Below the pieces are notes generated by a model that was not told where the DNA came from, made no database searches, and saw only the letters and a list, made by a program, of their open reading frames with translations. A stretch of DNA of 32,000 nt. Source: Gemmata obscuriglobus. GTDB lineage: Bacteria > Planctomycetota > Planctomycetia > Gemmatales > Gemmataceae. Positions 5,079-29,371 of this stretch are shown here, piece by piece. The stretch spans positions 2,670,001-2,702,000 of the forward strand of contig NZ_CP042911.1 in assembly GCF_008065095.1 (NCBI RefSeq), written 5' to 3'. Position 1 is the stretch's first letter, and the number at the start of each line of letters is the position of its first letter. Both the position numbers and the translations under genes were made by a program.

Positions 5079-5226
5079 AGTGTGGCGAGCCCCGCGGAGG
5101 GGCGACGCGGCAGACGGGTGACCGCGTCGCTGGTGCGGAATGGGTGTCGCACTCCGACGTGGCCCGGGGCGCGCGAGACCGGCCGCCGTTTTACCGTTTG
5201 CACTTCCAGCGACCGGAGGAGATCCC

Positions 5227-11419: not shown

Positions 11420-11620
11420 GTGGTGCCCGCCCGACCATCGCGGTGTTCCGTCACGAGCGACGCGCGTTCTGTTCTCTCACGACCGTTCGGTCGGCACCCC
11501 GACTGCTTGGAGGCGATGGAGCGTGACGAACTGCTCGAAGCCCGGTGGGCGCAACTGACCGGGTTGTCAGGCCCTCCCGTGCTCTCGTTACAATAACGTT
11601 CGCACTCCGCGGAGGTTACC

Positions 11621-12331: not shown

Positions 12332-12400
12332 CGATGACGGTCGTCGAAGACCGACCACCGGCAGCTCCTTCCCCAAGCCGCTCGGAACCACGTCCACCGG

Positions 12401-12838: not shown

Positions 12839-13247
12839 GCCTATACTCCACTAAGTTAATTCATTAAGTAGAGTAACACATTGCCAACCAGACGCAAGCG
12901 CAGAGTTCCAACCCTTGGCTGCTTTGTCAGGTCGCCCGTGAGAGGGAACACAACGACTGGACTTCCCTCCGGCAAGTGAATGCCGACCGCTGCCGAGGTC
13001 GGCGGCGACGAGTAGCACGACGTTTTTCCGGGCCGCGCCCGCGTTCCCCGTGGGCGCGGGCGCAACGGCCAACGCTATGGTGAGGCTCCACGGGTGAGGT
13101 GCCGCGAAGTGTGGGCACCGGAACGCCAGCGTGCAAACCGGTTCCGGTCGGGGGGGCAAAACCGACCGCTCGAACGTTTGCGTCCGCCGCAGCGGGCGTT
13201 TACACTCGGCCGTCCCGCCCACCGACCCAACAACCAACGCTCTCCAC

Positions 13248-14291
13248 ATGAACCGTCGCGAATTCCTGGCCGCCGCAGCCACTGCGTCTTCCGGCCCGAT
13301 CCTGCTCGGCATGACGCGCAAAGCGGAAGAGAAGAACCCCGTCATCGGGGTTGAGGGGCACAAGTACGAGTGCGTCCACAACTGGGGCGAGTTGCCGGGC
13401 GGTTACGAGTGGCAAACGACCCACAACGTCGCGCTCGACGCCGCGGGGAACGTGTACATCACGCACCAGGGGTCGAAAGCCACCAAGGCCAGCCGTGACA
13501 CGGTAATGGTGTTCGACCCCAAGGGGAAGTTCATCCGGTCGTTCGGCAAGGAGTGGATCAACGGCGGGCACGGGATCGCCATCCGTAAAGAGGGCGGCGA
13601 GGAGTTCATCTACCTGTCCAACACCTGGGAACAGCCGAAGCTGGTGAAGACCAACCTGAAGGGCGAGGAGGTGTGGCGAAAGGGCCGCCCCGAGTGCAAG
13701 GAGTACGAGAACCCCTCGACGAAGTACGACCCCACCAACATTTGCTGGCTGCCGGACGGGGGCTTCAACGTCGGCGACGGGTACGGCTCGCACTACATGT
13801 TCAACTACGACAAGGACGGCAAGCTCCAGAAGGTGTTCGGCGGCGCGGGCACCGAGCCGGGCAAGTTCAAGACCCCGCACGGCCAGTGGCTCGACGAGCG
13901 CGACCCCAAGAACCCGGTGCTGGTGGTGTGCGACCGGGCGAACGCGCGCCTGCAACGGTTCACCCCCGACGGAACGGCGATCGACGCCACCGAGGGCGGC
14001 AAGGTGGTGCTGTTCCCGGCCCACGCGAAGACCCGAGGCGATGTGCTGCTGGTCCCCGACCTGCACGCCCGCGTGAGCCTGTTCGACAAGGAGAACAAGC
14101 CGATTGTTCACCTGGGCGATGACGCCGCGTGGCGCAAGAAGGTGCTCGGCGAGAACATCCGTGCCAAGCCGAAGGAGTGGCTGCCGGGCAAGTTCGTCCA
14201 CCCGCACGACGCCGCGTTCGACGCCGACGGCAACATCTTCGTCGTCGAGTGGGTCAGCACCGGCCGCATCACGCTCCTGCGCAAGGTGTGA
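13248..14291 (+). CDS. Tat-signal secreted six-bladed beta-propeller (NHL / peptidyl-alpha-hydroxyglycine lyase-like) protein
   Basis: MNRREFLAAAATAS is a twin-arginine motif. Repeated ...G.G..HG.. / ...HDAAFDADGNIFVVEW blades are present. I placed the start at the ATG giving the Tat leader, not the track start at 13131. Confidence 0.75.
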   Translation: MNRREFLAAAATASSGPILLGMTRKAEEKNPVIGVEGHKYECVHNWGELPGGYEWQTTHNVALDAAGNVYITHQGSKATKASRDTVMVFDPKGKFIRSFGKEWINGGHGIAIRKEGGEEFIYLSNTWEQPKLVKTNLKGEEVWRKGRPECKEYENPSTKYDPTNICWLPDGGFNVGDGYGSHYMFNYDKDGKLQKVFGGAGTEPGKFKTPHGQWLDERDPKNPVLVVCDRANARLQRFTPDGTAIDATEGGKVVLFPAHAKTRGDVLLVPDLHARVSLFDKENKPIVHLGDDAAWRKKVLGENIRAKPKEWLPGKFVHPHDAAFDADGNIFVVEWVSTGRITLLRKV

Positions 14292-14306
14292 GCGCGCCGG
14301 CGCCGC

Positions 14307-14693
14307 TCACCGCCGGAGGACGAACCGGCCCGAATCGCGGCGGCTGTTGAAGGTCGCATCGAAGGTCGTGCCGGTGACGACCGCGGTGGTGCGGAACGTG
14401 CCGAACGGCCCCAGCGGCTTTTCGGCCGAGAGGAGCACAACGCCATCGCCCCGCCCGACCACGTCCATCGTGGTCGAGTAGCGGAACGGGATGACCTTCG
14501 CGAACCGACCGCGGTAGGTCACACGGTAGGCGTCGTCACCCTGCGGCGTGAACCGGGCGTGAAGGGGGCCGGTGTGGCCGTTAGCGTCGCTCACCCAGTA
14601 CCCGGACCACTTCCCCGAAAGCTCGGGCGCCGGTTGCGCGAGTGCCGCCGCGGGCAGCACGCCGGACACGAAGACCGCCAGAAACAGCCGCAT
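14307..14693 (-). CDS. Small secreted hypothetical protein, 128 aa
   Basis: Signal peptide MRLFLAVFVSGVLPAAALAQP. Convergent with the previous gene. Confidence 0.6.
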   Translation of the reverse strand: MRLFLAVFVSGVLPAAALAQPAPELSGKWSGYWVSDANGHTGPLHARFTPQGDDAYRVTYRGRFAKVIPFRYSTTMDVVGRGDGVVLLSAEKPLGPFGTFRTTAVVTGTTFDATFNSRRDSGRFVLRR

Positions 14694-14841
14694 GGGTTCG
14701 ACCTCGTGAGAATCGGGTGTCCATCTTGTTATTTCGCGGCGAGGCCGGGCCGGTCCACAGCACTTCGCGGCGGTGAAGCGGGTGAACTGCGGGCGTTATA
14801 CGTGTTGTTCCGGTCGTAACGGATTCACGGAGCATGCTACC

Positions 14842-16026
14842 ATGTTACGCTTCCTGCCCGTGCTCGCGCTGGCCCTGTGCAGCGCGCCCACAACCGCCGC
14901 CGAGCCGGAAAAAATCGACGTGTTCGCGGCCGGCACGGGCGGGTACGCGATGTACCGCATCCCCGGCGTCGTGGTGACCCAAGCGGGCACGGTGCTCGCG
15001 TACTGCGAGGCCCGCAAGACCGGCAGCGATTGGGCCACCATCGACATCCTGCTCCGCCGCAGCACCGACGGCGGCAGAACGTGGGACGATCCGCAGAAGG
15101 TCGCGGACGTGAAGGGGCCGAAGGAGCGGAACCCGGTCGCGGTCGCGAAGAAACTCGGGAAGCCGGACGACATCACGTACAACAACCCCGTGATGATCGC
15201 GGACCGGTCGGGCGCCGTTCACCTGCTGTTCTGCCTCGATTACATGCGGTGCTTCCACTCCCGGTCGGGCGACGACGGCAGGACCTGGAGCGAACCGGCC
15301 GAGATCACCGCCACCGCCTTCGAGCCGCTCAAGAAAGCCCACGACTGGAAGGTTATCGCGACCGGCCCCGGCCACGGCATTCAGCTCAAAGGCGGGCGGC
15401 TGGTCGTCCCGGTGTGGCTCGCGCTCGGGACCGGCGGGGGCGGCCACGGCGACAGCGTGGCGGCGACCATTTCCAGCGACGACGGCGGCAAAACCTGGAA
15501 ACCGGGCGAGGTCGCGGCCCCGCGCACCGCGGAGATTCTCAGCCCGAACGAATCGACGGTGTGCGAACTGACCGACGGGTCGGTGATGCTCAACGCCCGC
15601 AGCCCGTCGAAGGCGAATCGGCGGCTGGTCACGATCAGCGCCGACGGCGCCACCAAGTGGAGCCAGCCGACGTTCGACGACGCGCTGCCGGAACCCCTTT
15701 GCATGGGGTCGCTCCTGAGCGTACCCGGCACGAAGCTGGTGCTATTCAGCAACCCCGACAACCTCGATAAGGCCGGCGCCAAGTCGCCCCCGGCACCCGG
15801 CACCGGCCGCGACCGCAAGAACCTGACCGTGCGCCTTAGCGACGACAGCGGGAAGACGTGGGCCGCGAAGCGGAGCGTGGAAGCGGGGTTCAGCGCCTAC
15901 TCCGACCTCGCGCTCGCGAAGGACGGCACCGTGCTGCTCTTCTACGAGCGCGCCGACGATAAGGGAACCAAGTACGGGCGGCTCACGGTCACGCGGTTCC
16001 CGGTCGAATGGGTCCGCGGGAAGTAG
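14842..16026 (+). CDS. Exo-alpha-sialidase / BNR-repeat glycosyl hydrolase (GH33-like)
   Basis: Signal peptide, a YRIP motif (YRIPGVV), and five Asp-boxes: [40 protein letters not shown]. Confidence 0.85.
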
Positions 16027-16061
16027 AACGAGTGAGTTCGCCCTCTTTCCGCGAGCGCCAG

Positions 16062-17093
16062 ATGATCGACCTCCGCAGCGACACCGTGACCAGGCCGACG
16101 CCGGGGATGATGGCCGCGATGATGGCCGCCCCCGTCGGCGACGACGTGTACGGCGAAGACCCGACCGTCAACGAACTGGAGCGCCGAACGGCCGCGCTGT
16201 TCGGCCTCGAAGCGGGGCTGTTCGTCCCGAGCGGGACGATGGCGAACCAGATCGCGGTGCGGGTCCACTGCCGCCCGCAGGACGAGGCGCTGCTCGAAAC
16301 CACCAGTCACATCCGGCTGTGGGAGGCGGGCGGCGCCGCAGCGCTGAGCGGGGTCACGCTCACCCCGATCGACAGCCCCACGCGGGACGGGCGGCTCAGC
16401 ACCAGCGACTTCACGGGCCGGGTGAGCCCCGACGACATGCACTCGGTGCGCACGCGGCTCGTGTGCCTGGAGGTGACCCACAACCGCGGCGGCGGGACCG
16501 TGCTCTCTCCGGATGCGATCGGCGACATCTCCCGCTGGGGGCGGCAGCACAACCTCGCGATGCACCTCGACGGCGCCCGGGTCTGGAACGCGATCGTGAA
16601 GACCGGCGTGCCCGCGGACGTGTGGGGCCGGATGTTCGACACGGTCAACGTGTGCTTCAGCAAGGGACTCGGGACGCCGGTCGGATCAATGCTGCTCGGC
16701 CCGCGCGACCTGATCGCGCAGGCGCGCCGGGTCCGCAAGCTGTTCGGCGGCGCGATGCGGCAAGTCGGGTTCCTCGCCGCCGCGTGTCTGTACGCGCTCG
16801 ACCACCACATCGAGCGCCTCGCCGAGGACCACGAGAACGCCCAGGTCATCGCGAAGGCGGTCGAACAGGTGCCCGGATTCACACTCGCCCCGCGCACGGT
16901 CGAAACGAACCTCGTGTGGTTCGAAGTGGACGCACGCCACGGGAACGCGAAGGCGGTGGCGGAACGGCTCAAGGCGAAGGGGGTGCTGGTCGCCCCGCTC
17001 GGGGCGCATGTGGTGCGGGTCGTCACGCACCTCGACGTGTCCCGCGATCAGTGCCAGAAGGCCGCGGACGCGATCCGGGCGCTCGCGGGCTGA
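16062..17093 (+). CDS. ltaE: Low-specificity L-threonine aldolase (PLP-dependent)
   Basis: [20 protein letters not shown]...[15 protein letters not shown]...GTMANQ...FSKGLG (Lys for PLP) is the classic LtaE/GLY1 pattern. Confidence 0.85.
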
Positions 17094-17096
17094 GGG

Positions 17097-17501
17097 CTAC
17101 TTGTCGCCCGGGTTCGGATCGGGCTTCTTCTTGATCCGGACGAACTCTTCCTTCAACCCGTCGGGGTCCACAACGATGAGTTCGTGTGTGGTGAGCTTCT
17201 TGATGGTCAGCGTCTCTTTCTTCACCGCCCCGCCCTGGTTGACCTCGTAGGGGAGTTCGTTGCCGACGACGCGATACGAGCCCTCGTACAGCGACACCCG
17301 GCCGTTCCCGAGCCGCTGGCGGATCACCATCTTCCCGCCCTGGTAGAAGTCGAGTTCCACGTCGGTGCTCGTGCCCCCACTCGAGTCGAGTGTCATCCGC
17401 CAGGTGCCGACCACCTTTTCGGCGTCGGACCGCTCCTTGGGCACCGGGGCCGCTCCAAGAGCACCGCACACCACACACAGTACGACGAAGGCGTGTCGCA
17501 T
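17097..17501 (-). CDS. TIGR03066-like (Gemmata paralogous family) small secreted/lipocalin-like protein, 134 aa
   Basis: Signal peptide, then ...KVVGTWRM...YQGGKMV...EGSYRVVGNEL...TLTIKKLTTHELIVVDPDG..EEFVRIKK. Confidence 0.65.
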   Translation of the reverse strand: MRHAFVVLCVVCGALGAAPVPKERSDAEKVVGTWRMTLDSSGGTSTDVELDFYQGGKMVIRQRLGNGRVSLYEGSYRVVGNELPYEVNQGGAVKKETLTIKKLTTHELIVVDPDGLKEEFVRIKKKPDPNPGDK

Positions 17502-17625
17502 AACCGGCTCCAGTGGGGCACTCCAGTCTGGAGCAAACCGCCGCCTCCTGTCAAGCGGCGAGGAGGCGTGGTGAACAAGTGCTCGCGCCGGATTGGAACG
17601 ACAGCCGGGCTCACGTCACCCGCGG

Positions 17626-18027
17626 TCACTTCTCGGGCTTCGCCTTCACCTTCTTAAACGCCGCCTCTTCGTTGTCCTTGCTCTTGCCCGCCATTTCGTC
17701 GTCGGTCAGCTTGGTCAGGGTAACCGTGTCCTTCACTTCCTCACCCAGAACCTTGAGCGCGAAGGTGAGTTTGTCGCCTTCCAGCTTGTAGGTGCCCTCG
17801 ATCTTGACTTCCTTCCCCTCCGCCCCGTCGGTGAGGACGACCTTGCCGTCCTTGGTGAACTCCACCACCATGCTCTCGCTCTTCTTGGACTTGTCCTCGC
17901 CCTTCTTGGACTTGATCGGCTGCCATTTGCCGATCAGCTTCTTGGCGTCAAACTTCTCGTCGGCCGCTCCCGCCGCGGTTCCGGCGGCCAGCGCGAGTGC
18001 CATCCCGATTCCGAGTAAAGTCCGCAT
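17626..18027 (-). CDS. TIGR03066-like small secreted protein, 133 aa (paralog of 17097..17501)
   Basis: MRTLLGIGMALALAAG signal, then KKLIGKWQP...VVEFTKDGKVVL...EGTYKLEGDKLTF...VTLTKLTDDEM...AAFKKVK. The start is set at the ATG giving the signal peptide. Confidence 0.65.
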   Translation of the reverse strand: MRTLLGIGMALALAAGTAAGAADEKFDAKKLIGKWQPIKSKKGEDKSKKSESMVVEFTKDGKVVLTDGAEGKEVKIEGTYKLEGDKLTFALKVLGEEVKDTVTLTKLTDDEMAGKSKDNEEAAFKKVKAKPEK

Positions 18028-18079
18028 CAACGTGCTCCTGTGTACGGGCGCCGCGCGGTGCCGCGCCGGTGAGCACACA

Positions 18080-19417
18080 TTACGTGTCCGTCGAATCGGC
18101 GTCTGCGCGGGCCTCCCACTCCCGTTCCGACTCGTCCGCGTCCTCGGTCCGCGGCGCCGGCACGGCCGAAACGCCCAACCCCTTGATCAACAGGGGCAGC
18201 GTCAGCCCTTGACCGACGAGGGTGGCAAAGATGACCGCGAACGTGAGCAACTGGATCAGGTCGCGCCCCGGGAACGGTCTCCCGTCTTCGGTCGTGAGCG
18301 GCAGCGCCAGCGCCGCGGCGAGCGACACCGCGCCGCGCATCCCCGTCCACCCCACCACCGTCACACTCCGCCACGACGGGTACGGCCCCGCGCACCCGAG
18401 CCGGTTGTCAACCCAGCGCGGCACGTACGCGCCCGGGAACATCCACAGCAGCCGCGCGACGATCGTCGCCCCGCACACGCCGGCGGCCCCGATGGCCAGT
18501 TCGCGGGGCGTGTGGGTGGTGTCCCCGAACTGCTCCAGGATCTGCCGCAGCGCGAACCCCACGAGGATGAACACCAGCCCGTTCAGCAGGAACTCGATCC
18601 ACTCCCACACGGCCCGGGCTTCCTCGAACAGTTCGTGCGTGAACACCTCCTCGCACCGGTTCCCGATCCACAGCCCGGCGGACACCGCCGCCAGCACCCC
18701 CGACAGGTGGAGGTGTTCCGCGGTCAGGTAGACCGCGAACGGCGTCAGCAGGGTGACCGTGATCACGAGCTTGCTGTCCGCCACCCCGCTCCGATCGAGC
18801 CACCGGTGGAACCGGTACACGAGCCACCCGCCCGCCACGCCGACCCCGACCCCGCCGGCGCTGACCAGCACGAACTCCCAGCCGGCACCCGCCAGGGAGA
18901 ACGCGCCGGTCGCCACGGCCGCGACCGCGAACCGCAACGCGACCAGCGCGGTCGCGTCGTTGACGAGGCTCTCGCCCTCAAGGATGGTAACGATCAGCCG
19001 CGGCACCCGGAGCCGCTGGGTGACCGCGACCGCCGCGACCGCGTCCGGCGGTGAGACGATCGCCCCGAGCACGAACGCCACGGCCCACGGCAGATCGAGC
19101 AGGTAGTGGGCCGCCGCCGCGACCGCCGCCGTGGTGAACAGCACGAGCCCCACCGCCAACAGCGTGATGGCCCGTAGTTGCGCTCGGAACTCGGGCCACG
19201 GGGTCCGGAACGCCGCCGCGTACAGCAGCGGCGGCAGGAACAGCAGGAACACGACCTGGGGGTCGATGCGGAACCCTGGCACCCACGGCTGGAGCCCCAG
19301 CAGCAGCCCGCCGACGACCAGGAAGATCGGTTCCGCCACCCTCAGCTTGCGCGCGATCAGGGCCAGCGCCACCGTGACCGCCAGCAGGGCCAAAACCAGT
19401 TCGACCGGGTGAAACAC
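18080..19417 (-). CDS. Na+/H+ antiporter (CPA1 / NhaP-type)
   Basis: About 445 aa with 10 or more TM segments and typical ...AIVSPPDAVAA...RL..ILEGESLVNDA... motifs. GTG at 19417 lies 6 nt after GGAGG. The upstream part of the track ORF overlaps the divergent promoter region. Confidence 0.85.
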   Translation of the reverse strand: MFHPVELVLALLAVTVALALIARKLRVAEPIFLVVGGLLLGLQPWVPGFRIDPQVVFLLFLPPLLYAAAFRTPWPEFRAQLRAITLLAVGLVLFTTAAVAAAAHYLLDLPWAVAFVLGAIVSPPDAVAAVAVTQRLRVPRLIVTILEGESLVNDATALVALRFAVAAVATGAFSLAGAGWEFVLVSAGGVGVGVAGGWLVYRFHRWLDRSGVADSKLVITVTLLTPFAVYLTAEHLHLSGVLAAVSAGLWIGNRCEEVFTHELFEEARAVWEWIEFLLNGLVFILVGFALRQILEQFGDTTHTPRELAIGAAGVCGATIVARLLWMFPGAYVPRWVDNRLGCAGPYPSWRSVTVVGWTGMRGAVSLAAALALPLTTEDGRPFPGRDLIQLLTFAVIFATLVGQGLTLPLLIKGLGVSAVPAPRTEDADESEREWEARADADSTDT

Positions 19418-19665
19418 CGCGCACCTCCGTGACTCGCATTCACACGAGCATACCCGGTGCGCGTTGACGCCGACAGCCCGACCCGCGTACCCTCTCCTCA
19501 ACCCCGGAGGTTCCGCCATGCCATACCCCCGCGCGATCGCACCGCTCCTCGTGCTGCTCTCCGCGTCAACCGCGTGGGCCGACACGATCACCCTCGTCGC
19601 CGGCGGCGGTAACGGACCCGACGGCGCGGAAGCGACCACCGCCAAGCTGCTCCAACCGTTCGGCG
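19305..19665. repeat. Direct repeat copy A (361 bp): antiporter 5' end, divergent intergenic region and NHL gene 5' end
   Basis: Aligns without gaps to 23746..24106 (offset 4441). I counted 12 mismatches. Confidence 0.9.
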
Positions 19666-19694
19666 GTGCGAGGTGTGGGCGGAAGCGTATTTGA
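19518..19694 (+). pseudogene. Truncated 5' stub of the NHL-repeat gene (49 homologous codons, then unrelated tail)
   Basis: MPYPRAIAPLLVLLSASTAWADTITLVAGGGNGPDGAEATTAKLLQPFG matches the N-terminus of 23959..25035. Homology ends at 19665. Confidence 0.75.
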
Positions 19695-19784
19695 CGGCAG
19701 GTGCGGAGATCTGTGGGGCGGCGGGTACGTGGATGTGTTGAGCTTTTCAGACGTGATTCTTGCTCGCTTCAATGTGTTGTGGCA

Positions 19785-19827
19785 GGAGCCCGGCAAGATC
19801 ACAACTCTTGCCGGGCTCCGATTTTTC
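19785..19827 (+). terminator. Rho-independent terminator-like hairpin (+ strand)
   Basis: GGAGCCCGGCAAG-atcacaact-CTTGCCGGGCTCC (13-bp perfect stem) followed by GATTTTTC. Confidence 0.5.
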
Positions 19828-19861
19828 ACAACACGTCGAGCGAAAGGCTCGACTCAAGCCA

Positions 19862-19898
19862 ATAAAACGAAAAACTCGGTAGGGTAATTGCCCTACCG
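19862..19898 (-). terminator. Rho-independent terminator-like hairpin for the minus-strand operon
   Basis: CGGTAGGG-taattg-CCCTACCG at 19877-19898. On the minus strand it is followed by AGTTTTTCGTTTTAT. It lies 38 nt beyond the stop of 19936..20637. Confidence 0.5.
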
Positions 19899-19935
19899 GG
19901 ACAGTGTAATTAGCCACTGTGGTTAATGGGCGCAA

Positions 19936-20637
19936 TCACGGCCGAACCAAACGCGGCATCGGCGCTTTGGGCGGAATGATTACAATCGTCATAGACTCAC
20001 TCGGATACGGGCTGTCGTACAGGAGGCCATCTCTGTCAAGGAAGCTGGGCATGTACTCCCGGGGGTAGGGAGTCCTTTTTTCCTCCCACGCTTGGTGAGC
20101 ATTCATCCGACCGTGGTGCTCACCCTTGTCCAACGCTTTCTCTCCAGGCGGAGGGGGGACAACCCCGCCAGGCCGCCGAAGAATACGAATGGTTCTGCAT
20201 GTGTCAACGCCATCCTTGCGATCGTAGTGGATGTAAACCCTGTCGCCAACTTTAACATCAGTAATGCGGTAGGTGTCAGCAGACCAAGTCTTGGCATACC
20301 CACCCTTGGCCAGCTCGCTAGCGAGTGCGAATGTCTTGGCCGGAACCTCTGGATAGTGCTTCTCCTTTAACGACAACTGGGCACCCGTCCTGGGGTTAAA
20401 CTCCTCGATGAGCACCCGGCGCTCAGGCCAATACAATGTAATCCCTTGGGCGTCTGCCTTCTGGACAAATCCAGAAGTATGACGGCCTGAGTAATTCCAC
20501 GTGAACGGAACAGAAGGATCAGGCGGAGGTCCCGAGTCCCAGGGGTCTTCCACCTGCGGCCTCGCTTGTTTTTGCCCCCCCGGAACCTGTACCGGGAGGG
20601 CAAAAAACATAATCGCAACAGTTAATCCCGTCAGCAT
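19936..20637 (-). CDS. Hypothetical secreted/anchored protein, 233 aa (low G+C)
   Basis: N-terminal hydrophobic MLTGLTVAIMFFALPV. It lies 33 nt downstream of the beta-helix gene on the same strand. One line counted at 47% G+C. No family recognised. Confidence 0.6.
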   Translation of the reverse strand: MLTGLTVAIMFFALPVQVPGGQKQARPQVEDPWDSGPPPDPSVPFTWNYSGRHTSGFVQKADAQGITLYWPERRVLIEEFNPRTGAQLSLKEKHYPEVPAKTFALASELAKGGYAKTWSADTYRITDVKVGDRVYIHYDRKDGVDTCRTIRILRRPGGVVPPPPGEKALDKGEHHGRMNAHQAWEEKRTPYPREYMPSFLDRDGLLYDSPYPSESMTIVIIPPKAPMPRLVRP

Positions 20638-20670
20638 ACGAGTTACTCCAGATCGCGCATCACTCCCAGC

Positions 20671-21746
20671 TTAGGCAGGCACAAGATCGTAAACTTCTGT
20701 ACCGTCCATTACAAGCGTGCTGCCTTGGAGCTTCAAGCCAGGCCCCCCCGGAGGCAAAGCCAGTGTGATATCGATGTCCTCATTCGCCACCACAGGCTTG
20801 AAGCCCCCTCCAGCTTCCAGAACGCGGGCAGTAAAGGTCACTCCCAGTGGCAACGTGTTCCAGTTTGGGATGTATATGCTAATAGTGACGTTTCCCCCAA
20901 TGTAGAACTTCTCATCGGCCCTTATCTTGTCTGCTACCTGATTGCCAACATTTAGCCCGCATAGAAATGTCCCGCCAATCCAATACAAATCCTTGGTGAC
21001 TTTCAAGGTGCCATATCCACCCAGCATCTTAACAGTCCCGCCAGCAATGGTTAGCTGAGCATCCACCTTCCCCGTGGATGAATTGGCTCCTACCACATCG
21101 ACAACTAGATTGCCGCCGTTCACCTTCATCGAGCCATACTTGCTCTTGAGAGTGCCATTGGCACCGCTAATCGTAATCGTACCACTGTTCTGTACGATAT
21201 CGATCTTTTTCGGAGCTGTAGGGTTCGCAGGAGCGAGGTTCGCACCAAAGCTGGCAAACGCACCATCCTCTATATTCAAGTTTCCGCCGTTATTCAGAAA
21301 CGTGCGATTCTTGGCATCGAACTGAACATTAGTGCCAATAGTGATCGTCCCATTGGTCTTCAGTTCAACTTTCGCCTTGCCGTCATCGTAGCTGCCAGCA
21401 GGACCCGACCATACAATGCCGCCCATGGGGACGGCGCTGATAGTCATGGTGGCGTTATCGACCGTCACCGGGCTGCCGTGCGAAAAATTCAGTGACGCAT
21501 CCGAGGCAAGAGTGGCGCCGTTGTTCACGACCAACGCGCTACCCAAGGTAAGCGTCCCGGCGCTGCTGATCGTGCCGACCGCCCCATTCAGGTAGACGGT
21601 TGATTCCGTGCTCGCACTGTTCAGCGTACCCCCGGTCCAGGTGAAGGTGTCGGTGACGGTGAGGTCGGTGCCGGAGGTGGGCTGTGAGATGGCTCCACTA
21701 GCCATCAGAAACTCTTTGGTCGCAATCGGGCCGCCGAACGTGACCG
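20671..21746 (-). pseudogene. 3' part of an IS-disrupted beta-helix-like secreted protein gene
   Basis: Gly/Asn/Thr-rich degenerate repeats (GGTLN.., NGATL.., GGNLN.., SGTITISGANGTL.., GGNLVVD.., AGGTVKM..) suggest a parallel beta-helix. The frame joins 23065 across the IS. Confidence 0.7.
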
Positions 21747-21756
21747 TGTTCGTGTA

Positions 21757-23064
21757 CAGGGCAAACGCACTCAATCCTCGGGATTTTTCAGTAGTACCTG
21801 TTCGAGGTAGGTATTATCCCATCCGGCCTTGAGTCGCCGGTTCTTGATCCCACATTTGGCGTTTGCCTTCTTCAACATCGCCAAGGCGATCTTGCGCACG
21901 AGGGCCATATTCTGCGGGCCGTGCCCTTCACGGAGTCGGTGGTCGTCTTCTCGGAACGCGACATCCAGCACCCAATGGCATGAATTCTCGATGCACCAAT
22001 GAGCCCGGATCCACGTTTGGAACCGCTTGGCCGATGCCTTCCGCGAGCTGATGTAATACCGCACCTCGTCGCTCGTCCTACCGGCGACCGTGCGGCTGCT
22101 GACGAGCACCACGACGGACCGCAACCGGGGCCACACATTCCGGTCCCGGATCGACTCCAGGTCGTCGATCACGAAGCAGAACCGCATCTCCTCGCGCCCG
22201 TGGCCCGTTCCTTCGTTGAGGTCGGTCGAGCGGCCCGCGTAGCTCGCCTCTAGGGCCCCCTCGGCCAACCGCTGGATGTCCTCGAGCAGCCGCGGCTGGT
22301 TGTCCTTGACCGCCAGCAGGTAGTCCCCCTTGGCGGCCACGATCTGCTGGGCGATGTCCTTCTGGGTGCCCATCGCGTCGATGCTCACCAGGGCCCCCGC
22401 GAGGTCCAGCCGCTCCAGCAGTTCCGGGATCGCGGTGATCTCGTTGGACTTCTCGTCGGTCTTCACCTGGGCCAACGTGAGGCCCAACTGCTGAGCCCAT
22501 GCGCTGACGATGTGTGTGGCCTTGCGAGCCCCCGTGCCGGTGACCCGCTTGGACCCCCGCATGGTCTTCCCGTCGATCGGGATGTGGGGCACCCGGAGGC
22601 CCTCGGCGGCGTCCGCGACCCACGCCCGGAAGCACCGCCCGAACGCCTCCGGGCGGACCAGCGCGAACACCCGGTTGAGGGTGTCGTGGGACGGAATCCC
22701 GTTGCGCAGCGTCAGCCCCAGCCGGTCCCGGAACCAGGACTCCTTGGCCCGCGCGAACTCGGCGATCGACACGAAGTCATCGGCCCCGACGATCGTCCCA
22801 CAGGTCACGATCATGAGTACATCAATCAAGTCGTGGAAGCACTTCAACTCGACCCGCGGATCCGGGATCTGGGACAGGTACTCGATTAACGGGCGTGGGC
22901 CGGGGGCGGCACTCATCGGCAGACTCCGAGGCGGTGAGGGCGCGCCAGAATCATATGGAGGCGGGGCCGCACATGCGCAGGAGGCGAGCGATGGCCGCTC
23001 GATCACACGCCTCAAAATTAGCTAGAATCCAGCGATTCCTAGGGGATTGAGTGCGTTTGCCCTG
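21757..23064 (-). mobile_element. ISAs1-family insertion sequence, 1308 bp
   Basis: Perfect 21-bp terminal inverted repeats: CAGGGCAAACGCACTCAATCC at 21757-21777 and its reverse complement at 23044-23064. A 10-bp direct duplication TGTTCGTGTA lies at 21747-21756 and 23065-23074. Confidence 0.9.
21771..22916 (-). CDS. ISAs1-family transposase, 381 aa
   Basis: MSAAPGPRPLIEYLSQIPDPRVELKCFHDLIDVLMIVTCGTIVGADDFVSIAEFA... is the characteristic ISAs1 (H-repeat-like) N-terminus. ATG lies 7 nt after GGAG. About 67% G+C, unlike the neighbouring low-G+C DNA. Confidence 0.9.
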   Translation of the reverse strand: MSAAPGPRPLIEYLSQIPDPRVELKCFHDLIDVLMIVTCGTIVGADDFVSIAEFARAKESWFRDRLGLTLRNGIPSHDTLNRVFALVRPEAFGRCFRAWVADAAEGLRVPHIPIDGKTMRGSKRVTGTGARKATHIVSAWAQQLGLTLAQVKTDEKSNEITAIPELLERLDLAGALVSIDAMGTQKDIAQQIVAAKGDYLLAVKDNQPRLLEDIQRLAEGALEASYAGRSTDLNEGTGHGREEMRFCFVIDDLESIRDRNVWPRLRSVVVLVSSRTVAGRTSDEVRYYISSRKASAKRFQTWIRAHWCIENSCHWVLDVAFREDDHRLREGHGPQNMALVRKIALAMLKKANAKCGIKNRRLKAGWDNTYLEQVLLKNPED

Positions 23065-23431
23065 TGTTCGTGTAGTCGATCTTGACCGATTTGAGCGTCC
23101 CGCCACCGGACACAATGAACCCGTCGCAGTTCGGTGCCGCACCTGCGCCCAATCCGCCCCCGAAGATCACGCTATCCCCGGCGATGGGCAGGGGGTGGTA
23201 CGGCTCTTCGTCCCAAGGCGTAGATTCGAACGCGGCAGCCCAGTTGCCGGCGTCGAGCGCGTTCGTGCCGACGGTCCCGAGCCACGTGAACGTCGCCGGC
23301 ACCTCGCGCGCCTCGAACTGATCCAAGCGCGGGCGGAACCGGTTGCTGGGACTTTTGCGGGCAGACGTTTGCGGCAGGGAGGAATTCAAGCCGAGCCGGC
23401 GAACCAGGGACGACAGGGCGGAGGTCAACAT
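23065..23431 (-). pseudogene. 5' part of the IS-disrupted beta-helix-like secreted protein gene
   Basis: MLTSALSSLVRRLGLNSS...RFRPRLDQFEAREVPATFTW is a leader typical of planctomycete secreted proteins. An alternative TTG start is at 23509. Deleting the IS and one TSD copy gives ...IDYTNTVTFGGPIATKEF... in frame. Confidence 0.7.
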
Positions 23432-23745
23432 TAAGGTTCCCGTTGTGTGAAATGCGCCCCGCAACCGCGAGGAGCGGTCAGATGGTACCGGCGCACGGAA
23501 GCTAGTCAACGAAAGTTTTTTTAATTCAGAGCGAACGAGATCAGTTCACGGTTTGCGCAGTTGACACGCTTCGATGTGGCCGAGTGTCGCAAATCGCTTT
23601 TTGATAATGATTTGTGAAATCGGCCTGCCGGATGCTCCGGAGTGGGGTTGCGGAACTTGGTTGTATGATTCCAAGGCGTTTCTCGCATTCCCAGGCAGTT
23701 TCGGGTAGGAGCGCGCAAACCGCGAACTGACCTCACATTCCCCTG

Positions 23746-23858
23746 AGCCCGCCGACGACGAGGAAGATCGGTTCCGCCACCCTCAGCTTGCGCGCGATCA
23801 GGGCCAGCGCCGCCGTGACCGCCAGCAGGGCCAGGACCAGTTCGACCGGGTGAAACAC
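23746..23858 (-). pseudogene. 5' stub (about 37 codons) of the Na+/H+ antiporter gene
   Basis: VFHPVELVLALLAVTAALALIARKLRVAEPIFLVVGGL matches the N-terminus of 18080..19417. Homology ends at 23746. Confidence 0.75.
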
Positions 23859-24106
23859 CGCGCACCTCCGTGACTCGCATTCACACGAGCATATCCGGTG
23901 CGCGTTGACGCCGACAGCCCGACCCGCGTACCCTCTCCTCAACCCCGGAGGTTCTCCCGTGCCATACCCCCGCGCGCTCGCACCGCTCCTCGTGCTGCTC
24001 TCCGCGTCAACCGCGTGGGCCGACACGATCACCCTCGTCGCCGGCGGCGGTAACGGACCCGACGGCGCAGAAGCAAACACCGCCAAGCTGCTCCAACCGT
24101 TCGGCG
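23746..24106. repeat. Direct repeat copy B (361 bp)
   Basis: See copy A. This copy is contiguous with the full-length NHL gene and carries only a stub of the antiporter gene. Confidence 0.9.
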
Positions 24107-25035
24107 TGGACTTCGACGCCCGCGGCACCACCTACATCGTCGAGATGGCGAAGGGCGAGCGGCTTCGCGCCGTCACAGGTGGGAAGCTGGTGACGCTCGC
24201 CGGAACCGAGGGCAAGAAGGGCGATCAGGGCGACGGCGGCCCGGCCGCGCAAGCCACCTTCAACGGGATGCATTCGCTGGCCGTTGGCCCCGGCGGCACG
24301 GTCTACCTCGCCGACACCTGGAACAACCGCGTCCGCGTGTTCGACCCGGAAGCCGGCACCGTGAAGGCGTTCGCCGGCACCGGAACGAAGGGCTTTTCCG
24401 GCGACGGCGGCCCCGCGAAGGACGCCAAGTTCGGGGGCGTGTTTTGCGTCGCCTTCGACCCGGCGCAGAAGAACCTCTACGTTACGGACCTCGACAACCG
24501 CCGCATCCGCAAAATCGACATGAAGACGCAGACCGTCACCACGGCCGCGGGGAACGGCGAGAAGGGCGTGCCGAAGGACGGCGAGAACGCGCGGACGCAA
24601 CCGCTGGTCGATCCGCGGGCGCACGCGGTGGATAAGGACGGCAACCTGTGGGTGCTCGAACGCGGCGGCCACGCGCTTCGCGTGGTGGACCCGAAGGGGA
24701 CGATTCGCACCGTCGCCGGGACCGGGAAGGCCGGCCGCGGCACGGGTAAGGCGCTCGAGGCCGCCATGAACGGCCCCAAGCACCTCTGCGTCGATAAAGA
24801 CGGAACGGTCCTGATTGCCGACACCGAGAACCACCGGGTCGTGCGGTTCGATCCGAAGGCGGGCACCCTCACCGCCGTGGCCGGAACCGGTAAGAAGGGT
24901 AACAGCCTGGGCGGCGGCGACCCGCTGAAGGCCGAGTTCAACCAGCCGCACGGCGTGACCGTTCACCCGAAAACCGGCGACATCTACATTTCCGACGCGA
25001 ACAACGGCCGCGTGCTCAAAATCACCCGCGAGTAG
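23959..25035 (+). CDS. Secreted NHL-repeat beta-propeller protein, 358 aa
   Basis: GTG lies 7 nt after GGAGG. Signal peptide, then six units of ..G.GG.A..A.fngP..l.vd..G.vyiaD..NhRVr.fd. Confidence 0.85.
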   Translation: MPYPRALAPLLVLLSASTAWADTITLVAGGGNGPDGAEANTAKLLQPFGVDFDARGTTYIVEMAKGERLRAVTGGKLVTLAGTEGKKGDQGDGGPAAQATFNGMHSLAVGPGGTVYLADTWNNRVRVFDPEAGTVKAFAGTGTKGFSGDGGPAKDAKFGGVFCVAFDPAQKNLYVTDLDNRRIRKIDMKTQTVTTAAGNGEKGVPKDGENARTQPLVDPRAHAVDKDGNLWVLERGGHALRVVDPKGTIRTVAGTGKAGRGTGKALEAAMNGPKHLCVDKDGTVLIADTENHRVVRFDPKAGTLTAVAGTGKKGNSLGGGDPLKAEFNQPHGVTVHPKTGDIYISDANNGRVLKITRE

Positions 25036-25068
25036 AGCCCGCGGCGCCCCTCCGGACCGAGGTTGCCA

Positions 25069-25911
25069 ATGACACGCATTTACCTGCTCCTCCTCGCGGT
25101 CGGGTTGGCCGCGGTGCCATCTGCCGCGCAACCGCTCAAGCCCCTCGCGAACCGCAACGTGCGGTTCGGGATGCCGGGCGAGGCGAAGGCCGACCCCGAC
25201 AACAAAGAGGCGTACCTGATCGAGCGCCCGCAGTACGTGCTCTCCTACAACGACAAGCGCAAGACCGCCAACTGGGCCTGCTGGCAGCTCGCGAAGAAGG
25301 ACATCGGCAAGGTCGCCCGCGGGGCGTTCGCGCCGGACAAGGGGCTGCCGAAGGATTTCGCCGCGATCGGGTCCGGCGTCTACACCGGCAGCGGCTTCGA
25401 CCGCGGCCACTTGGTCCCGTCGAAGGACCGCTCGGACACCGAGGCGGACAACGACGCCGTGTTCGTGATGACCAACGTCGTGCCGCAGTCGCCCAAGTGC
25501 AACCAGGGCGCGTGGGAGAAGTTCGAGCGGTACTGCCGCGAACTCGCCGAGGACGGTAAGGAGTTGTACATTGCCGCCGGTCCGTATGGGCTCGGCGGCA
25601 CGGCCGGCGACGGCACCAGGAAGATCACCATCGGCAAGCACGCTCCGTTCGTCACCGTCCCCGCGAGCGTGTGGAAGGTGGTGCTGGTGCTCGACCGCGG
25701 CACCAACCCGAACCGGCACAGCCGCGCCATCGCGATATGGATGCCCAACGACGGCACGGTCGATGAATACGACTGGGCCAAGTACCGCGTTCCCGTGGCC
25801 GAAGTCGAGAAGAAAACGAAACTGAAGTTCTTCCCGCTGGTCACCGAAGAAGTCGCGGCGGCGCTCAAAGAGAAGGCGGACGCGGTCCGGGTCGCGCCAC
25901 ACAAAAAGTAA
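25069..25911 (+). CDS. Secreted DNA/RNA non-specific endonuclease (NucA/Serratia-nuclease family)
   Basis: Signal peptide MTRIYLLLLAVGLAAVPSAAQ. Active-site block GSGFDRGHLVPS, followed by TNVVPQSPKCNQG (beta-beta-alpha-Me finger, DRGH plus Asn). Confidence 0.85.
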   Translation: MTRIYLLLLAVGLAAVPSAAQPLKPLANRNVRFGMPGEAKADPDNKEAYLIERPQYVLSYNDKRKTANWACWQLAKKDIGKVARGAFAPDKGLPKDFAAIGSGVYTGSGFDRGHLVPSKDRSDTEADNDAVFVMTNVVPQSPKCNQGAWEKFERYCRELAEDGKELYIAAGPYGLGGTAGDGTRKITIGKHAPFVTVPASVWKVVLVLDRGTNPNRHSRAIAIWMPNDGTVDEYDWAKYRVPVAEVEKKTKLKFFPLVTEEVAAALKEKADAVRVAPHKK

Positions 25912-25922
25912 CGAGGCGAAGA

Positions 25923-26297
25923 ATGGCGAAGCAAGACCCCGTGCTGAAGGAACTCCGGTCGGCCGCCAAGGGGCTCCTGTTCCCGAGCGAGACGGACGCG
26001 CCGCTGGAGGCGTTCGCGTGGCCCGGCGGCGACGGCCCGCCCGACGAGGCCGCCGTTCGTGCGAACGCTAAAGTTGATGCCGAGGTGCCGGTCGAGCGGC
26101 TCACGCTGGCGGACCTCACCCGCACCATCCCCGACGAGGGGCGCGGCCCGTTCCTGCCGCTGTTCGCGGTGCTGGCCCACCACCTGAGCGGCGCCGCGGT
26201 GTTCAAGGTCGGCGAAACCGAGATCGACGTGTACATCGTGGGCCGCACCACCGACGGCCGGTACGCGGGCGTGAAGACCAAGGTCGTGGAGACGTGA
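25923..26297 (+). CDS. Nuclease A inhibitor (NuiA)-like protein, 124 aa
   Basis: GLLFPSETDAPLEAFAW resembles the NuiA-family SE(S/T)D.P(F/L)E..W block. It is small, acidic, has no signal peptide, and sits 11 nt after nuclease 1 and 17 nt before nuclease 2. Confidence 0.65.
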   Translation: MAKQDPVLKELRSAAKGLLFPSETDAPLEAFAWPGGDGPPDEAAVRANAKVDAEVPVERLTLADLTRTIPDEGRGPFLPLFAVLAHHLSGAAVFKVGETEIDVYIVGRTTDGRYAGVKTKVVET

Positions 26298-26314: not shown

Positions 26315-27187
26315 ATGGCCTCGAAGAACTTTCTGGATACCCTGACGCCGACCCAACGGATCGTGGCCGGCGTGCTGATCCTCATCATCGGCGGCATCGC
26401 CGCGCTCCTGCGGATTCAGCAGGAGAAGCACGCGCCGCCGGGCGGGCCGACCGGCGACAACCGCAACGTGCGGTTCGGGACGCCGGCGCCGGCCGAACGC
26501 GACCCGAACAGCCGGGACGCGTACCTCATCGAACGGCCGCAGTACACGCTGTCCTACAACGACACGAAGCGGACCGCGAACTGGGTGTGCTGGAACCTGA
26601 CGAAAGGCGACATCGGCAACACCCCGCGGCTGTCGCACTTCGATCCCGATCCCGAGTTGCCGGGCTCGTTCCGCAAGGTGAAGCACGACGACTACACCGG
26701 CAGCGGGTTCGACCGCGGCCACCTGTGCCCCTCGAAGGACCGCACCGACAGCGCGGACAACAACGCGGCCACGTTCTACACGACCAACATCGTCCCCCAG
26801 TCGCCGGCGTGCAACCGGGGCGGGTGGGAGCGGTTCGAGTCACACTGCCGCGACCTCACCCGGGACGGCAGCGAACTGCACATCGCGGCCGGCCCGCACG
26901 GCACCGGCGGCACCGGCGAGAAAGGCCCGCACGACACCATCGGGGGCGCGAAGGTGAACGTGCCGAGCGCGACCTGGAAGGTGGTGCTGGTGGTCCCGGC
27001 CGGAAACGCCCGCCCCGGCCCCGATAGCAAAATGCTGGCGGTCTGGATGCCCAACGACCAGAGCGTCCCGGAGGCGTGGAAGCCGTATCAGGTGTCCGTG
27101 GCGACGGTCGAGCAGCGCACCGGTTACAAGTTCTTCCCGCTCGTCCCCGATGATGTCGCGGCGCCGCTGAAGGCCCGCGAGCCGTAG
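26315..27187 (+). CDS. Membrane-anchored DNA/RNA non-specific endonuclease (paralog of 25069..25911)
   Basis: N-terminal TM segment RIVAGVLILIIGGIAALL rather than a cleavable signal. GSGFDRGHLCPS and TNIVPQSPACNRG are present. Collinear with nuclease 1 throughout. Confidence 0.85.
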   Translation: MASKNFLDTLTPTQRIVAGVLILIIGGIAALLRIQQEKHAPPGGPTGDNRNVRFGTPAPAERDPNSRDAYLIERPQYTLSYNDTKRTANWVCWNLTKGDIGNTPRLSHFDPDPELPGSFRKVKHDDYTGSGFDRGHLCPSKDRTDSADNNAATFYTTNIVPQSPACNRGGWERFESHCRDLTRDGSELHIAAGPHGTGGTGEKGPHDTIGGAKVNVPSATWKVVLVVPAGNARPGPDSKMLAVWMPNDQSVPEAWKPYQVSVATVEQRTGYKFFPLVPDDVAAPLKAREP

Positions 27188-27685: not shown

Positions 27686-28678
27686 TCAGCGCCGCGGGCG
27701 GTCCCACGGTTTGCGGTCGTCGTCATCGTAATCATCACGGTCCCGGCGCCGCGGGCGGTCATCCCCGTCGTCGTACTCGTCATCACGGGCGCGGCGCCGC
27801 GGCCGGTCGTAATCCTCGTCCTCGTAATTCTCGTCGTCGTAATCCTCGTCGTCGCTGTAGTCCTCGTCGTCGTAGTCGCTCCGCCGGCGGCGGACGTACG
27901 TCCGGAGTGCCGAAGACATGCCGACCAGCAGCATCACGTAAAAGATGCTCCCGACGAGGGCGATGAGTAAGGCGAGCATGCTCAGCAGCCCGCCGACGAT
28001 CACGGCGACCGCCATCGGCCCCGCGGGGGGGGCACCGCCCCCGCCCCCGGCGCCCCCCGGCCCCCCGCCGGCCATCATGGCCCCCATCCCGGCGAAGATG
28101 GTCACGATGGCGATGAGGTAACACACGGCCGCAGCCACGCCCAGCCACATGACCAGCATCGCCCGCGAGGCCAGAGCCGAGGAGCGGATGAATTTGGCCA
28201 GCGACCGCGTGAACAGCAGGAACAGGATCGTCGCGAGCAGTCCGCCCAGTAACGTGACCCCGGAGAGCACAAGCTTCGCTGCCGGGGGCAAAAAGTTGCC
28301 CCCGACGTTGTCCGCGATGCTGAACAGGTTGGCGCCGACGCTGCCGAGTTCCATCACCACAGCGATGGTGATGAGCGACTTTGCCGACGCTGCCTGCGGC
28401 GGCACCGCGAGACACATCACCCGGCCGATCAGCCCGAGTACGGCCCCGAGCAGCCACAGGCCGGCGAAAATCACCATCAGGATCATCATCCCGCCGAACG
28501 CGGCCATCGGCGCGCCGGGTGGGCCGTTCCCCCTGCCGCCGGGGCCGGCGGCGGCGGCCCCGGCCATGCCGACGAGGCACGCCCCCACGAACAGAACCGC
28601 GACGGACACTATTGTGATAATCATACCGTACAAGATCAGCTTGAAGCCGGTCGCCACTCGGAGCAGTGCGTCGTTCAT
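27686..28678 (-). CDS. Polytopic membrane protein, 330 aa, with poly-Gly/Ala/Pro loops and an Asp/Tyr/Glu/Arg-rich tail
   Basis: About 8 hydrophobic segments. Loops include AAAAGPGGRGNGPPGAP and GGGPGGAGGGGGAPPAGP. The C-terminal 80 aa or so is ...YDDEDYSDDEDYDDENYEDEDYDRPRRRARDDEYDDGDDRPRRRDRDDYDDDDRKPWDRPRR. Confidence 0.65.
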   Translation of the reverse strand: MNDALLRVATGFKLILYGMIITIVSVAVLFVGACLVGMAGAAAAGPGGRGNGPPGAPMAAFGGMMILMVIFAGLWLLGAVLGLIGRVMCLAVPPQAASAKSLITIAVVMELGSVGANLFSIADNVGGNFLPPAAKLVLSGVTLLGGLLATILFLLFTRSLAKFIRSSALASRAMLVMWLGVAAAVCYLIAIVTIFAGMGAMMAGGGPGGAGGGGGAPPAGPMAVAVIVGGLLSMLALLIALVGSIFYVMLLVGMSSALRTYVRRRRSDYDDEDYSDDEDYDDENYEDEDYDRPRRRARDDEYDDGDDRPRRRDRDDYDDDDRKPWDRPRR

Positions 28679-28759
28679 CGGGCTCTCGCTTCAAATTGGG
28701 GTGCCGGCCCGCTCGGAACGTGCCGGGCACAGGTGGTTTTACTCGTCGACGAGAGCCGG

Positions 28760-29371
28760 TCACCACCGGTTCCCGGGCGGGTGCCGGCCGTCGTCGTCTT
28801 CGTTGTCGTCCTCATCGACGTTCCGTCTCCGGGGCGACCGGCCGCGGCCGTTCCGCCCGTCGTCGTAATCGTCGTCGTAATCGTCGCTCGCGTCGGTGTC
28901 GTAATCGTCGTCCCGGTAGCGTAACTCCAGCCGGCGGCTCAAATTCGAGACCTTCACCCAGTACAGAATCCAGCACACGAGCCCGCCCACGAACGCGGGC
29001 AGCCCGCAGTAGCCCAACACGAGGCTGAGCGCGCCCAGCGCGCTGGCCACGATGCCAAGGGTCTGCCCGTAGTCCTCGCCGCGCCGGTGCCACCCCCGCT
29101 CCCGGTGCTCGTCCCTGAGCGTCTCGGTCACGCGAATGATGGTGATAAAAATCCACACGAGGTTGAAGAACGGGATCAGGTTCAGCCACACCATCGCCGG
29201 CTCCATCGTCCGGTTAAGGGGGTGGCACTGAGCGAGCGCCCGCGAGAGGGTCAAAAGGTAGAAGATGCTGGCGACGAACAGCAGCAGGTAGAAGCCGCAC
29301 ACGCCCGCGATGACGGCCACCACAATCGCGTCCGGGCCGTTGTTTTGCGCGAGCAAGGTCGGGGGCGACAT
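28760..29371 (-). CDS. Integral membrane protein, 203 aa, paralog of 27197..27670 with an added Asp/Tyr/Arg-rich tail
   Basis: MSPPTLL... start, 7 nt after GAGGA. Contains VWLNLIPFFNLVW...VTETLRDE. The tail is RDDDYDTDASDDYDDDYDDGRNGRGRSPRRRNVDEDDNEDDDGR. The track start at 29401 would abut the acnA terminator. Confidence 0.65.
   Translation of the reverse strand: MSPPTLLAQNNGPDAIVVAVIAGVCGFYLLLFVASIFYLLTLSRALAQCHPLNRTMEPAMVWLNLIPFFNLVWIFITIIRVTETLRDEHRERGWHRRGEDYGQTLGIVASALGALSLVLGYCGLPAFVGGLVCWILYWVKVSNLSRRLELRYRDDDYDTDASDDYDDDYDDGRNGRGRSPRRRNVDEDDNEDDDGRHPPGNRW

Follow-up and report, generated by a model that had tools for sequence, protein, structure and literature searches.

A 361-bp direct repeat around a two-gene cassette in Gemmata obscuriglobus, a probable relic of one old duplicative insertion

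Insertion-duplications and the Gemmata locus

Direct repeats on the two sides of an inserted segment are known from several bacterial systems. Transposons and insertion sequences (IS) leave a direct duplication of their target at either end. Campbell-type products include the ISCR1-linked class 1 integrons with duplications of the 3'-conserved segment (3'-CS) (PMC3575428) and the insertion-duplications made with suicide plasmids. The microcin H47 island of E. coli (PMC5426353) is a small cargo island, and the merodiploids that arise in transformation do so by inter-chromatid integration and unequal crossing-over (Johnston et al. 2013, PMC3784515). Here we describe a locus in a window of 32,000 nucleotides from Gemmata obscuriglobus (contig NZ_CP042911.1, positions 2,670,001 to 2,702,000; positions below are those of the window) in which two direct 361-bp copies of the start region shared by a Na+/H+ exchanger gene, hereafter the antiporter gene, and a divergent gene for an NHL-repeat beta-propeller flank a 4,080-bp insert. 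The locus records one event, in which two non-homologous joins were made 361 bp apart, the interval between them was duplicated and both flanking genes were preserved. It is a well-preserved new instance of a known rearrangement, insertion-duplication, and not a new mobile element or recombination system. On balance, we take it to be the inherited scar of a single old duplicative insertion and not the product of a recent integration.

The locus resembles each of these systems in part. As with a transposon or IS, the target is directly duplicated on both sides, and an ISAs1-family IS nested within the insert shows the classical form of such a duplication, 10 bp long. At 361 bp, the repeat is over ten times as long as classical IS target duplications, including the 9- to 10-bp duplications that we found at all six sites of this ISAs1 element, and the 4.08-kb insert has neither terminal inverted repeats nor a transposase of its own, the sole transposase being that of the nested IS. 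We therefore reject the insert as a transposon or IS with its target duplication; the first-pass annotation of this DNA had likewise judged the repeat far too long for that. As in Campbell products, the inserted DNA stands between two copies of one chromosomal segment in direct orientation, only one side of each copy runs on into native DNA, and the original single-copy site would be regained exactly if the copies recombined. Unlike them, the locus has no replicon, no rolling-circle IS, no circle-forming element and no known donor bearing the segment, and its structure is old and common to two species, with no demonstrable hybrid pattern of donor and recipient. The microcin H47 island shares with it a small cargo without a recombinase, placed between direct repeats and excisable by host recombination, but here the repeats are 361 bp long and duplicate the target's own genes and promoter, and excision has not been observed. 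With the transformation merodiploids it has in common a duplication made in one step during integration, and an intact copy that coexists with a disrupted one, so that selection retains the duplication; the merodiploid duplications, however, are 100-900 kb long and depend on repeats already present (IS861 remnants), whereas here 361 bp are duplicated and the cargo joins without homology.

The locus shows in a natural case how foreign genes can enter a compact divergent promoter and leave both neighbours alive, because the target itself was duplicated. The aftermath is visible as well: the two promoters have evolved concertedly, the stubs have degenerated, some of the cargo has been lost, in a different way in each species, and selection has kept one cargo gene. 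Genome scans should not take the divergence of such repeats for that of a donor, since exchange between the two copies overwrites it.

The repeat pair, its age and its later exchange

The first-pass annotation had described ungapped direct repeats of 361 bp with 12 mismatches, and this is exact: copies A and B (Table 1) align over their full length and differ at 19319, 19371, 19393, 19394, 19453, 19514, 19515, 19518, 19536, 19628, 19634 and 19636, given as copy-A positions. Their local alignment gave 337, against a mean of 13 for shuffled sequences (z = 177). Outside both repeat ends identity drops to background at once, and we found no residual or extended homology past either end, which rules out a larger duplication that has since decayed. 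A simple tandem (segmental) duplication is also rejected, since the locus has two novel junctions and its copies are separated by 4,080 bp of unrelated DNA. The gene content and the start codons reported for the two copies stand as well. Each copy contains 37.7 codons of the antiporter gene and 49.3 codons of the NHL gene, and copy A runs on into the intact antiporter gene and leaves a stub of the NHL gene, while copy B runs on into the intact NHL gene and leaves a stub of the antiporter gene; the NHL start codon is ATG in the stub (19518) and GTG in the functional copy (23959).

The duplication with its insert is real. An independent complete assembly (CP025958.1) is 100% identical over window 18771-25916 (7,146 bp), which covers the whole structure, and contigs assembled from short reads span the junction between copy A and the insert, one contig occurring in at least 20 runs. 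These short-read contigs cover window 19598-21785 and end exactly where 31-mers become common with copy B. With the same junction present in a second species (below), an assembly artefact is ruled out, and with it the chimeric join that the first-pass annotation had named as a danger to its account. One short-read contig (Logan SRR9494611, 1-346) matches window 23761-24106 and is a hybrid, with A-type variants on the left (equivalents of 19371, 19393, 19394 and 19453) and B-type variants onward. Popping of a variant (bubble) in k-mer assembly is the most likely cause; in principle that culture could also have contained a genuine product of conversion or deletion. This contig was not used as evidence.

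Relatives were found by scanning reference genomes for the antiporter, followed by BLAST, and the locus without its insert was represented by a synthetic empty site, in which window copy A is joined directly to the sequence after copy B. Four Gemmataceae loci, those of a Gemmata metagenome-assembled genome (MAG; L004), a Frigoriglobus MAG (L008) and two further relatives (L006 and L012), give a single colinear alignment across both repeat ends, and in two more (L007 and L010) the antiporter and NHL genes are adjacent too. The outgroups keep the antiporter start region and its Shine-Dalgarno site. The ancestral state is thus an empty site with one copy of the segment, at which the antiporter and NHL genes lie side by side in divergent orientation.

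The closest genome, that of G. algarum JC673 (about 95.5% DNA identity), carries the same duplication and orthologous cargo. Its junction between copy A and the insert is identical (...TTCGGCG joined to GTGCGAGGTGTGGGCGG...), apart from two base changes that JC673 has on the repeat side. Since duplication, junction and cargo are all common to JC673, the event predates the split of the two species, and the comparison indicates that the insertion is old and was inherited from before the divergence of G. obscuriglobus and G. algarum. An adjacent, divergent empty site in relatives had been predicted from the sequence of the window, and it is found in the more distant Gemmataceae; the condition that the annotation had named as refuting its account, a duplicated arrangement with the insert in all related genomes, is partly borne out by JC673.

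The two species have since treated the locus differently. In JC673 the 233-aa gene of the cassette is intact, with 10 amino-acid differences, and the larger beta-helix gene is reduced to its last ~34 codons. About 510 bp of unrelated DNA (JC673 contig L003, 8254-8765) replace the rest of that gene together with the first 81 bp of copy B, of which only the right-hand 280 bp survive. The equivalent of window 19790-19931 is deleted, so that the hairpin of 19785-19819 is absent, and the NHL stub carries two frameshifting deletions of 1 bp. The large cargo gene has therefore been inactivated independently in each lineage, by ISAs1 here and by deletion or replacement in JC673. The ~510-bp segment contains a 28-nt inverted repeat and may be the remnant of another element.

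Synonymous divergence (dS) between the window and JC673 is 0.133 for the 233-aa cargo gene, 0.075 for the antiporter gene, 0.106 for the NHL gene and 0.078 for the endonuclease gene, with ratios of nonsynonymous to synonymous divergence (dN/dS) of 0.156, 0.084, 0.222 and 0.10, respectively. As the cargo dS is at least as high as that of the flanking genes (0.075-0.106), there is no sign that the cargo arrived later than they diverged. These ratios indicate that the 233-aa gene is under purifying selection and functional. Its retention has probably been selected, because 361-bp repeats 4 kb apart offer a precise route of deletion, and yet the gene has been kept.

The copies of the window (wA, wB) and of JC673 (jA, jB) were compared over the 280 bp common to all of them, with L004 and L006 as outgroups. 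None of the 11 informative sites follows position by uniting the two A copies and the two B copies; seven are concerted within each genome and the other four are swapped (wA with jB, wB with jA). The swapped sites include the linked cluster 19514, 19515 and 19518, at which the ancestral CG..A form, with its ATG, stands in the stub here and in the functional copy of JC673, and the derived TC..G form, with its GTG, is distributed the other way round. The identity of wA to wB is 96.4%, against 91.0% for wA to jA and 90.0% for wB to jB. Chance homoplasy alone would leave none of 11 sites positional with a probability of ~0.012 ((2/3)^11). The simplest reading of these patterns is that the copies exchanged sequence, by gene conversion or reciprocal exchange, after the species had split. 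As the copies have exchanged sequence, their 12 differences cannot be read as those between a donor and a recipient. The first-pass annotation had explained the 3% divergence by a circularised fragment from a related strain, and had proposed to locate the crossover from the 12 variants. The former explanation fails, as the structure was inherited along with JC673, the cargo dS is not lower and the repeat sites are concerted or swapped; as for the latter, the pattern is a mosaic from which a single crossover point cannot be recovered.

How the insertion arose

We propose the following course of events. In the ancestor that G. obscuriglobus and G. algarum share, a GC-poor Gemmataceae cassette of ~2.8 kb would have been joined into the compact divergent start region of the antiporter and NHL genes, bringing with it the beta-helix gene, its small partner gene, a promoter-like site of its own and terminators. 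The ends of the cassette would have been joined at chromosomal positions 19665 and 19305, by which the interval between them would have been duplicated; both flanking genes would thereby have retained a whole 5' end along with their own copy of the regulatory block, at the cost of two leftover stubs. This could have happened in a single step that needs no homology, either by illegitimate joins of the ends of incoming DNA, staggered across sister chromosomes much as in the inter-chromatid integration model for transformation merodiploids (PMC3784515), or by template switching in replication or repair, and selection would then have acted as a filter, limiting survival to the product that preserved both genes. 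Afterwards, as the comparison with JC673 shows, the copies exchanged sequence, the stubs decayed and the large cargo gene was inactivated separately in each lineage, and the 233-aa gene remained under purifying selection.

Conservation of the intergenic region is consistent with such a filter. A 42-nt block, GCGCGTTGACGCCGACAGCCCGACCCGCGTACCCTCTCCTCA, has no mismatch in either copy of either species or in L004, which is only ~81% identical overall, and has 3 mismatches in L006 and 6 in L008; an exact probe with it found 0 matches among metagenome contigs. Its conservation suggests a regulatory element needed by both divergent genes, the antiporter and the NHL gene, which probably share it as a promoter or operator. 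If both genes do need it, only a duplicative product would survive insertion into this 100-bp intergenic region.

The cassette itself belongs to a very rare family, with 5-6 homologues among 5.8 billion proteins, in which a beta-helix gene of ~450-520 aa is followed by one to four genes of ~200-250 aa. Homologous cassettes are present in Gemmata sp. SH-PL17 (L043), in GCA_000531095.1 (L037) and in three metagenome contigs (L035, L050 and L053), all in unrelated contexts. At none of these five contexts did we find long flanking direct repeats or an associated recombinase, which rules out a cassette family that is mobile and makes long duplications as it moves. The cassettes are GC-poor (54-56%) in every genome, including in conserved, vertically inherited chromosomal contexts, so that low GC is a trait of the family and no proof of recent foreign origin. 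In L037, a phage-like block (11531-20744, including Phage_capsid_4) interrupts a DUF885 gene beside the homologous cassette; at the syntenic site of SH-PL17 the DUF885 gene is intact (582 aa) and the block is missing, and the block is apparently a prophage insertion into that gene.

Among the routes to the present structure, the one-step illegitimate origin, by staggered join or template switch, is in our estimate the most likely, with a chance that we put a little short of even. The nearest competitor is a true Campbell integration in the common ancestor of both species, in which a circle carrying the cassette and one 361-bp copy entered by a single homologous crossover; the circle could have been a circularised chromosomal fragment, or the plasmid of a relative whose backbone was later deleted. 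We rate this as somewhat less likely, with the following in its favour. A single crossover would leave exactly this topology, as the first-pass annotation had pointed out, and the site is empty in relatives; the copies demonstrably recombine, the reciprocal-looking swap of the start-codon haplotype (19514, 19515, 19518) between the copies of the two species fits excision and reintegration with different crossover points, and natural precedents exist, for example the ISCR1-linked class 1 integrons with 3'-CS duplications (PMC3575428). Against it, such an origin presupposes a donor already carrying the cassette next to this very locus, an illegitimate circularisation and then the crossover, which is more steps than a direct duplicative insertion takes. 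Neither donor nor circle was found in collections that are incomplete: an exact probe of the left end of the cargo had 0 matches among metagenome contigs, no relatives of the cargo were found in viral contigs, and the homologues lie in unrelated contexts. The shared ancestry and the concerted and swapped sites also contradict the idea that a related-strain donor accounts for the 3% divergence. We weight the illegitimate route slightly above the Campbell route because it needs two joins only, whereas the latter needs those same junctions and, in addition, a crossover and a donor. It is improbable, in our view, that the cassette with one 361-bp copy is still a mobile unit driven by homology and free of any recombinase, leaving as a circle through host recombination and re-entering the same or another Gemmata strain in the manner of Campbell; were it so, the antiporter/NHL promoter region would be a built-in attachment site and the haplotype swap a footprint of excision and reintegration.

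By analogy with phages that bring a replacement end for the gene they enter, the locus might be what remains of an integrase-borne island or prophage whose attachment region supplied a replacement 361-bp copy and which later lost its integrase along with most of its other DNA. The L037 cassette does adjoin a phage-like block, and the insert is GC-poor against its flanks. But that block is absent from the syntenic SH-PL17 locus, and so is an unrelated insertion, and the cassette is GC-poor in vertically inherited contexts too; the cargo has no relatives in viral contigs, neither species has an integrase or recombinase gene in the insert or the conserved flanks, and the repeat holds gene 5' ends and a promoter where a tRNA gene or a gene 3' end would be looked for. 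We consider this origin very improbable. We give equally little credence to a tandem 361-bp duplication that came first and received the cassette in a separate, later event, an alternative that the first-pass annotation had allowed for. Tandem duplications are common in bacteria and are selectable when they activate foreign genes (PMC11111574), but the cassette sits exactly at the would-be junction 19665/19305 without any offset, which an independent event would achieve with a chance of ~1 in 361, and no sampled genome has the 361-bp tandem duplication minus the insert.

We stress that several observations temper our preference for a single old illegitimate insertion. A staggered join or template switch and a Campbell crossover give the same product, so that the topology fits both equally, and the exchange between copies has erased any mosaic of donor and recipient that might have told them apart. 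No microhomology is visible at the two novel junctions, though this says little. A stagger of 361 nt is unusually long for any documented bacterial insertion. The placing of the event before the species split rests on two genomes, of which one is a single close relative (JC673). Identical junctions would also follow if one and the same circle had integrated twice, independently and by Campbell crossover, although we disfavour this because the copies that would then be donor-derived are the least similar pairs between the strains.

Cargo genes, nested element and other features of the window

Table 1. Features of the insertion-duplication and of the genes around it, in window coordinates
Feature	Position	Strand	Remarks
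Na+/H+ exchanger (antiporter) gene, intact	18080..19417	-	GTG start at 19417; Pfam Na_H_Exchanger PF00999, 214 bits
Direct repeat copy A	19305..19665		antiporter 5' end (functional here), whole divergent intergenic region, NHL 5' stub
42-nt invariant intergenic block	19459..19500 (copy A), 23900-23941 (copy B)	+	cross-genome conservation
NHL stub pseudogene	19518..19694	+	49 native codons, then read-through into the insert to a stop codon
Insert: two-gene cassette and nested IS	19666..23745		absent from L004, L006, L008 and L012
Terminator-like hairpin and T-run just downstream of NHL stub	19785..19819	+	14 pairs, 10 of them G-C; consensus match only
Terminator-like hairpin and T-run downstream of 233-aa gene	19877..19898	-	consensus match only
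Cargo gene 2, 233-aa protein (GobsT_22840)	19936..20637	-	N-terminal hydrophobic segment
Cargo gene 1, 3' part, annotated as 367-aa GobsT_22850	20671..21756	-	range includes one copy of the 10-bp IS duplication
ISAs1-family insertion sequence, 1,308 bp	21757..23064	-	CAGGG termini; 21-22-nt perfect inverted repeats; transposase 21771-22916
Cargo gene 1, 5' part	23065..23431	-	ATG at 23431; N-terminal 'FEAREVPA' motif
Sigma-70-like promoter match upstream of cargo gene 1	23482..23509	-	TTGACT-16-TACCAT, 9/12; consensus match only
Antiporter stub	23733..23858	-	41 codons, reads into the insert; same orientation as the cargo genes
Direct repeat copy B	23746..24106		antiporter 5' stub, intergenic region, NHL 5' end (functional here)
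NHL-repeat beta-propeller gene, intact	23959..25035	+	GTG start; PF01436 and PF25021

The cassette is a self-contained unit of two genes on the minus strand, a beta-helix gene (480 aa) and its 233-aa partner, with a GC content of 54-56% against ~68% in the flanks. GobsT_22840 and GobsT_22850 are annotated in three assemblies. Neither cargo protein matches anything by sequence in Pfam, NCBIfam, PADLOC or the PDB, and among the database matches there was no second copy of either in G. obscuriglobus, so that a source for copy-and-paste within the genome is not evident. The N-terminus of the 480-aa protein is typical of planctomycetes. For a 49%-identical homologue of this protein (P0007), an AlphaFold model is confident and all-beta, with a predicted local distance difference test (pLDDT) of 86 and a predicted template modelling score (pTM) of 0.86, and its top Foldseek matches are the passenger domains of Ag43, Hap and pertactin (E = 6e-5), at template modelling (TM) scores of only 0.2-0.4. 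The model supports a predicted parallel beta-helix for the 480-aa protein, at the level of fold class only. No autotransporter or translocator domain was found in it, and we reject an autotransporter (type V) adhesin, as there is no C-terminal beta-barrel translocator and the likeness extends to the passenger domain only. The model of the 233-aa protein was too poor for a fold search (pLDDT 55).

The duplication would have given each flanking gene a copy of the regulatory region of its own. Transcripts started at the NHL promoter of copy A would meet the strong hairpin terminator predicted just beyond the stub, and the antiporter promoter of copy B, which points into the cargo in the sense direction, may help to express it. 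Such expression would matter most in JC673, where the promoter region of the cassette is deleted and the 233-aa gene is still constrained. The antiporter stub is annotated as a gene of 41 aa in CP025958.1, and the intact NHL protein has an exact match in several assemblies. No Rfam families and no tRNA genes were found in the window, and no inverted repeats pair the ends of the 4.08-kb insert.

The nested element was passed over in the first-pass account of the insert. It is an ISAs1-family IS, as transposase, inverted repeats, short target duplication and multiple copies are all present. The transposase scores 395.5 bits with NF033564 (cutoff 70) and also matches PF13808 and PF01609; the IS has duplicated 10 bp of its target, TGTTCGTGTA, at 21747-21756 and 23065-23074, and elsewhere in the genome there are five further copies (L044-L048) with 99.9-100% identity. 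Removal in silico of 21757-23064, together with one copy of the duplication, restores a single open reading frame (ORF) of 480 aa. The element is active and its insertion is a recent, secondary event unrelated to the 361-bp repeat, since it has its own 10-bp duplication, its removal restores the ORF and near-identical copies lie elsewhere. That the IS created the 361-bp structure is ruled out, for it lies inside a cargo gene, with that short duplication, and not at a boundary of the insert.

A second, different IS-like segment lies at 9745-10812, with a 339-aa DDE_Tnp_1/DDE_5 transposase on the minus strand (9750-10769), and is absent from the syntenic DNA of JC673. Further segments specific to the window by that comparison are ~11567-12397, with a DUF4058 ORF, and 27850-28805. 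Directly downstream of the NHL gene are tandem paralogous Endonuclease_NS genes (25063-25911 and 26315-27187; stretches of ~75% identical DNA), with a NuiA nuclease-inhibitor gene (25923-26297) between them. Intergenic palindromic repeats of ~58-95 nt with GCCGAAC...GTTCGGC ends occur at 67-160, 649-706, 2264-2357, 2720-2777 and 4989-5082; of three copies folded, the first gives a long hairpin (-49.8 kcal/mol, z = -4.2) and two do no better than shuffles, and the family looks like repetitive extragenic palindromes (REP) or miniature inverted-repeat transposable elements (MITE). Ten tandem 72-nt coding repeats at 1066-1785 have a leucine-rich-repeat-like periodicity and lie in a GC-poorer stretch (56-57%). 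Short GTCGTCGTAATC-type repeats at 27802-27894 and 28780-28914, in minus-strand ORFs where they would encode acidic tracts rich in Asp and Tyr, lie at or beside a segment that differs from JC673.

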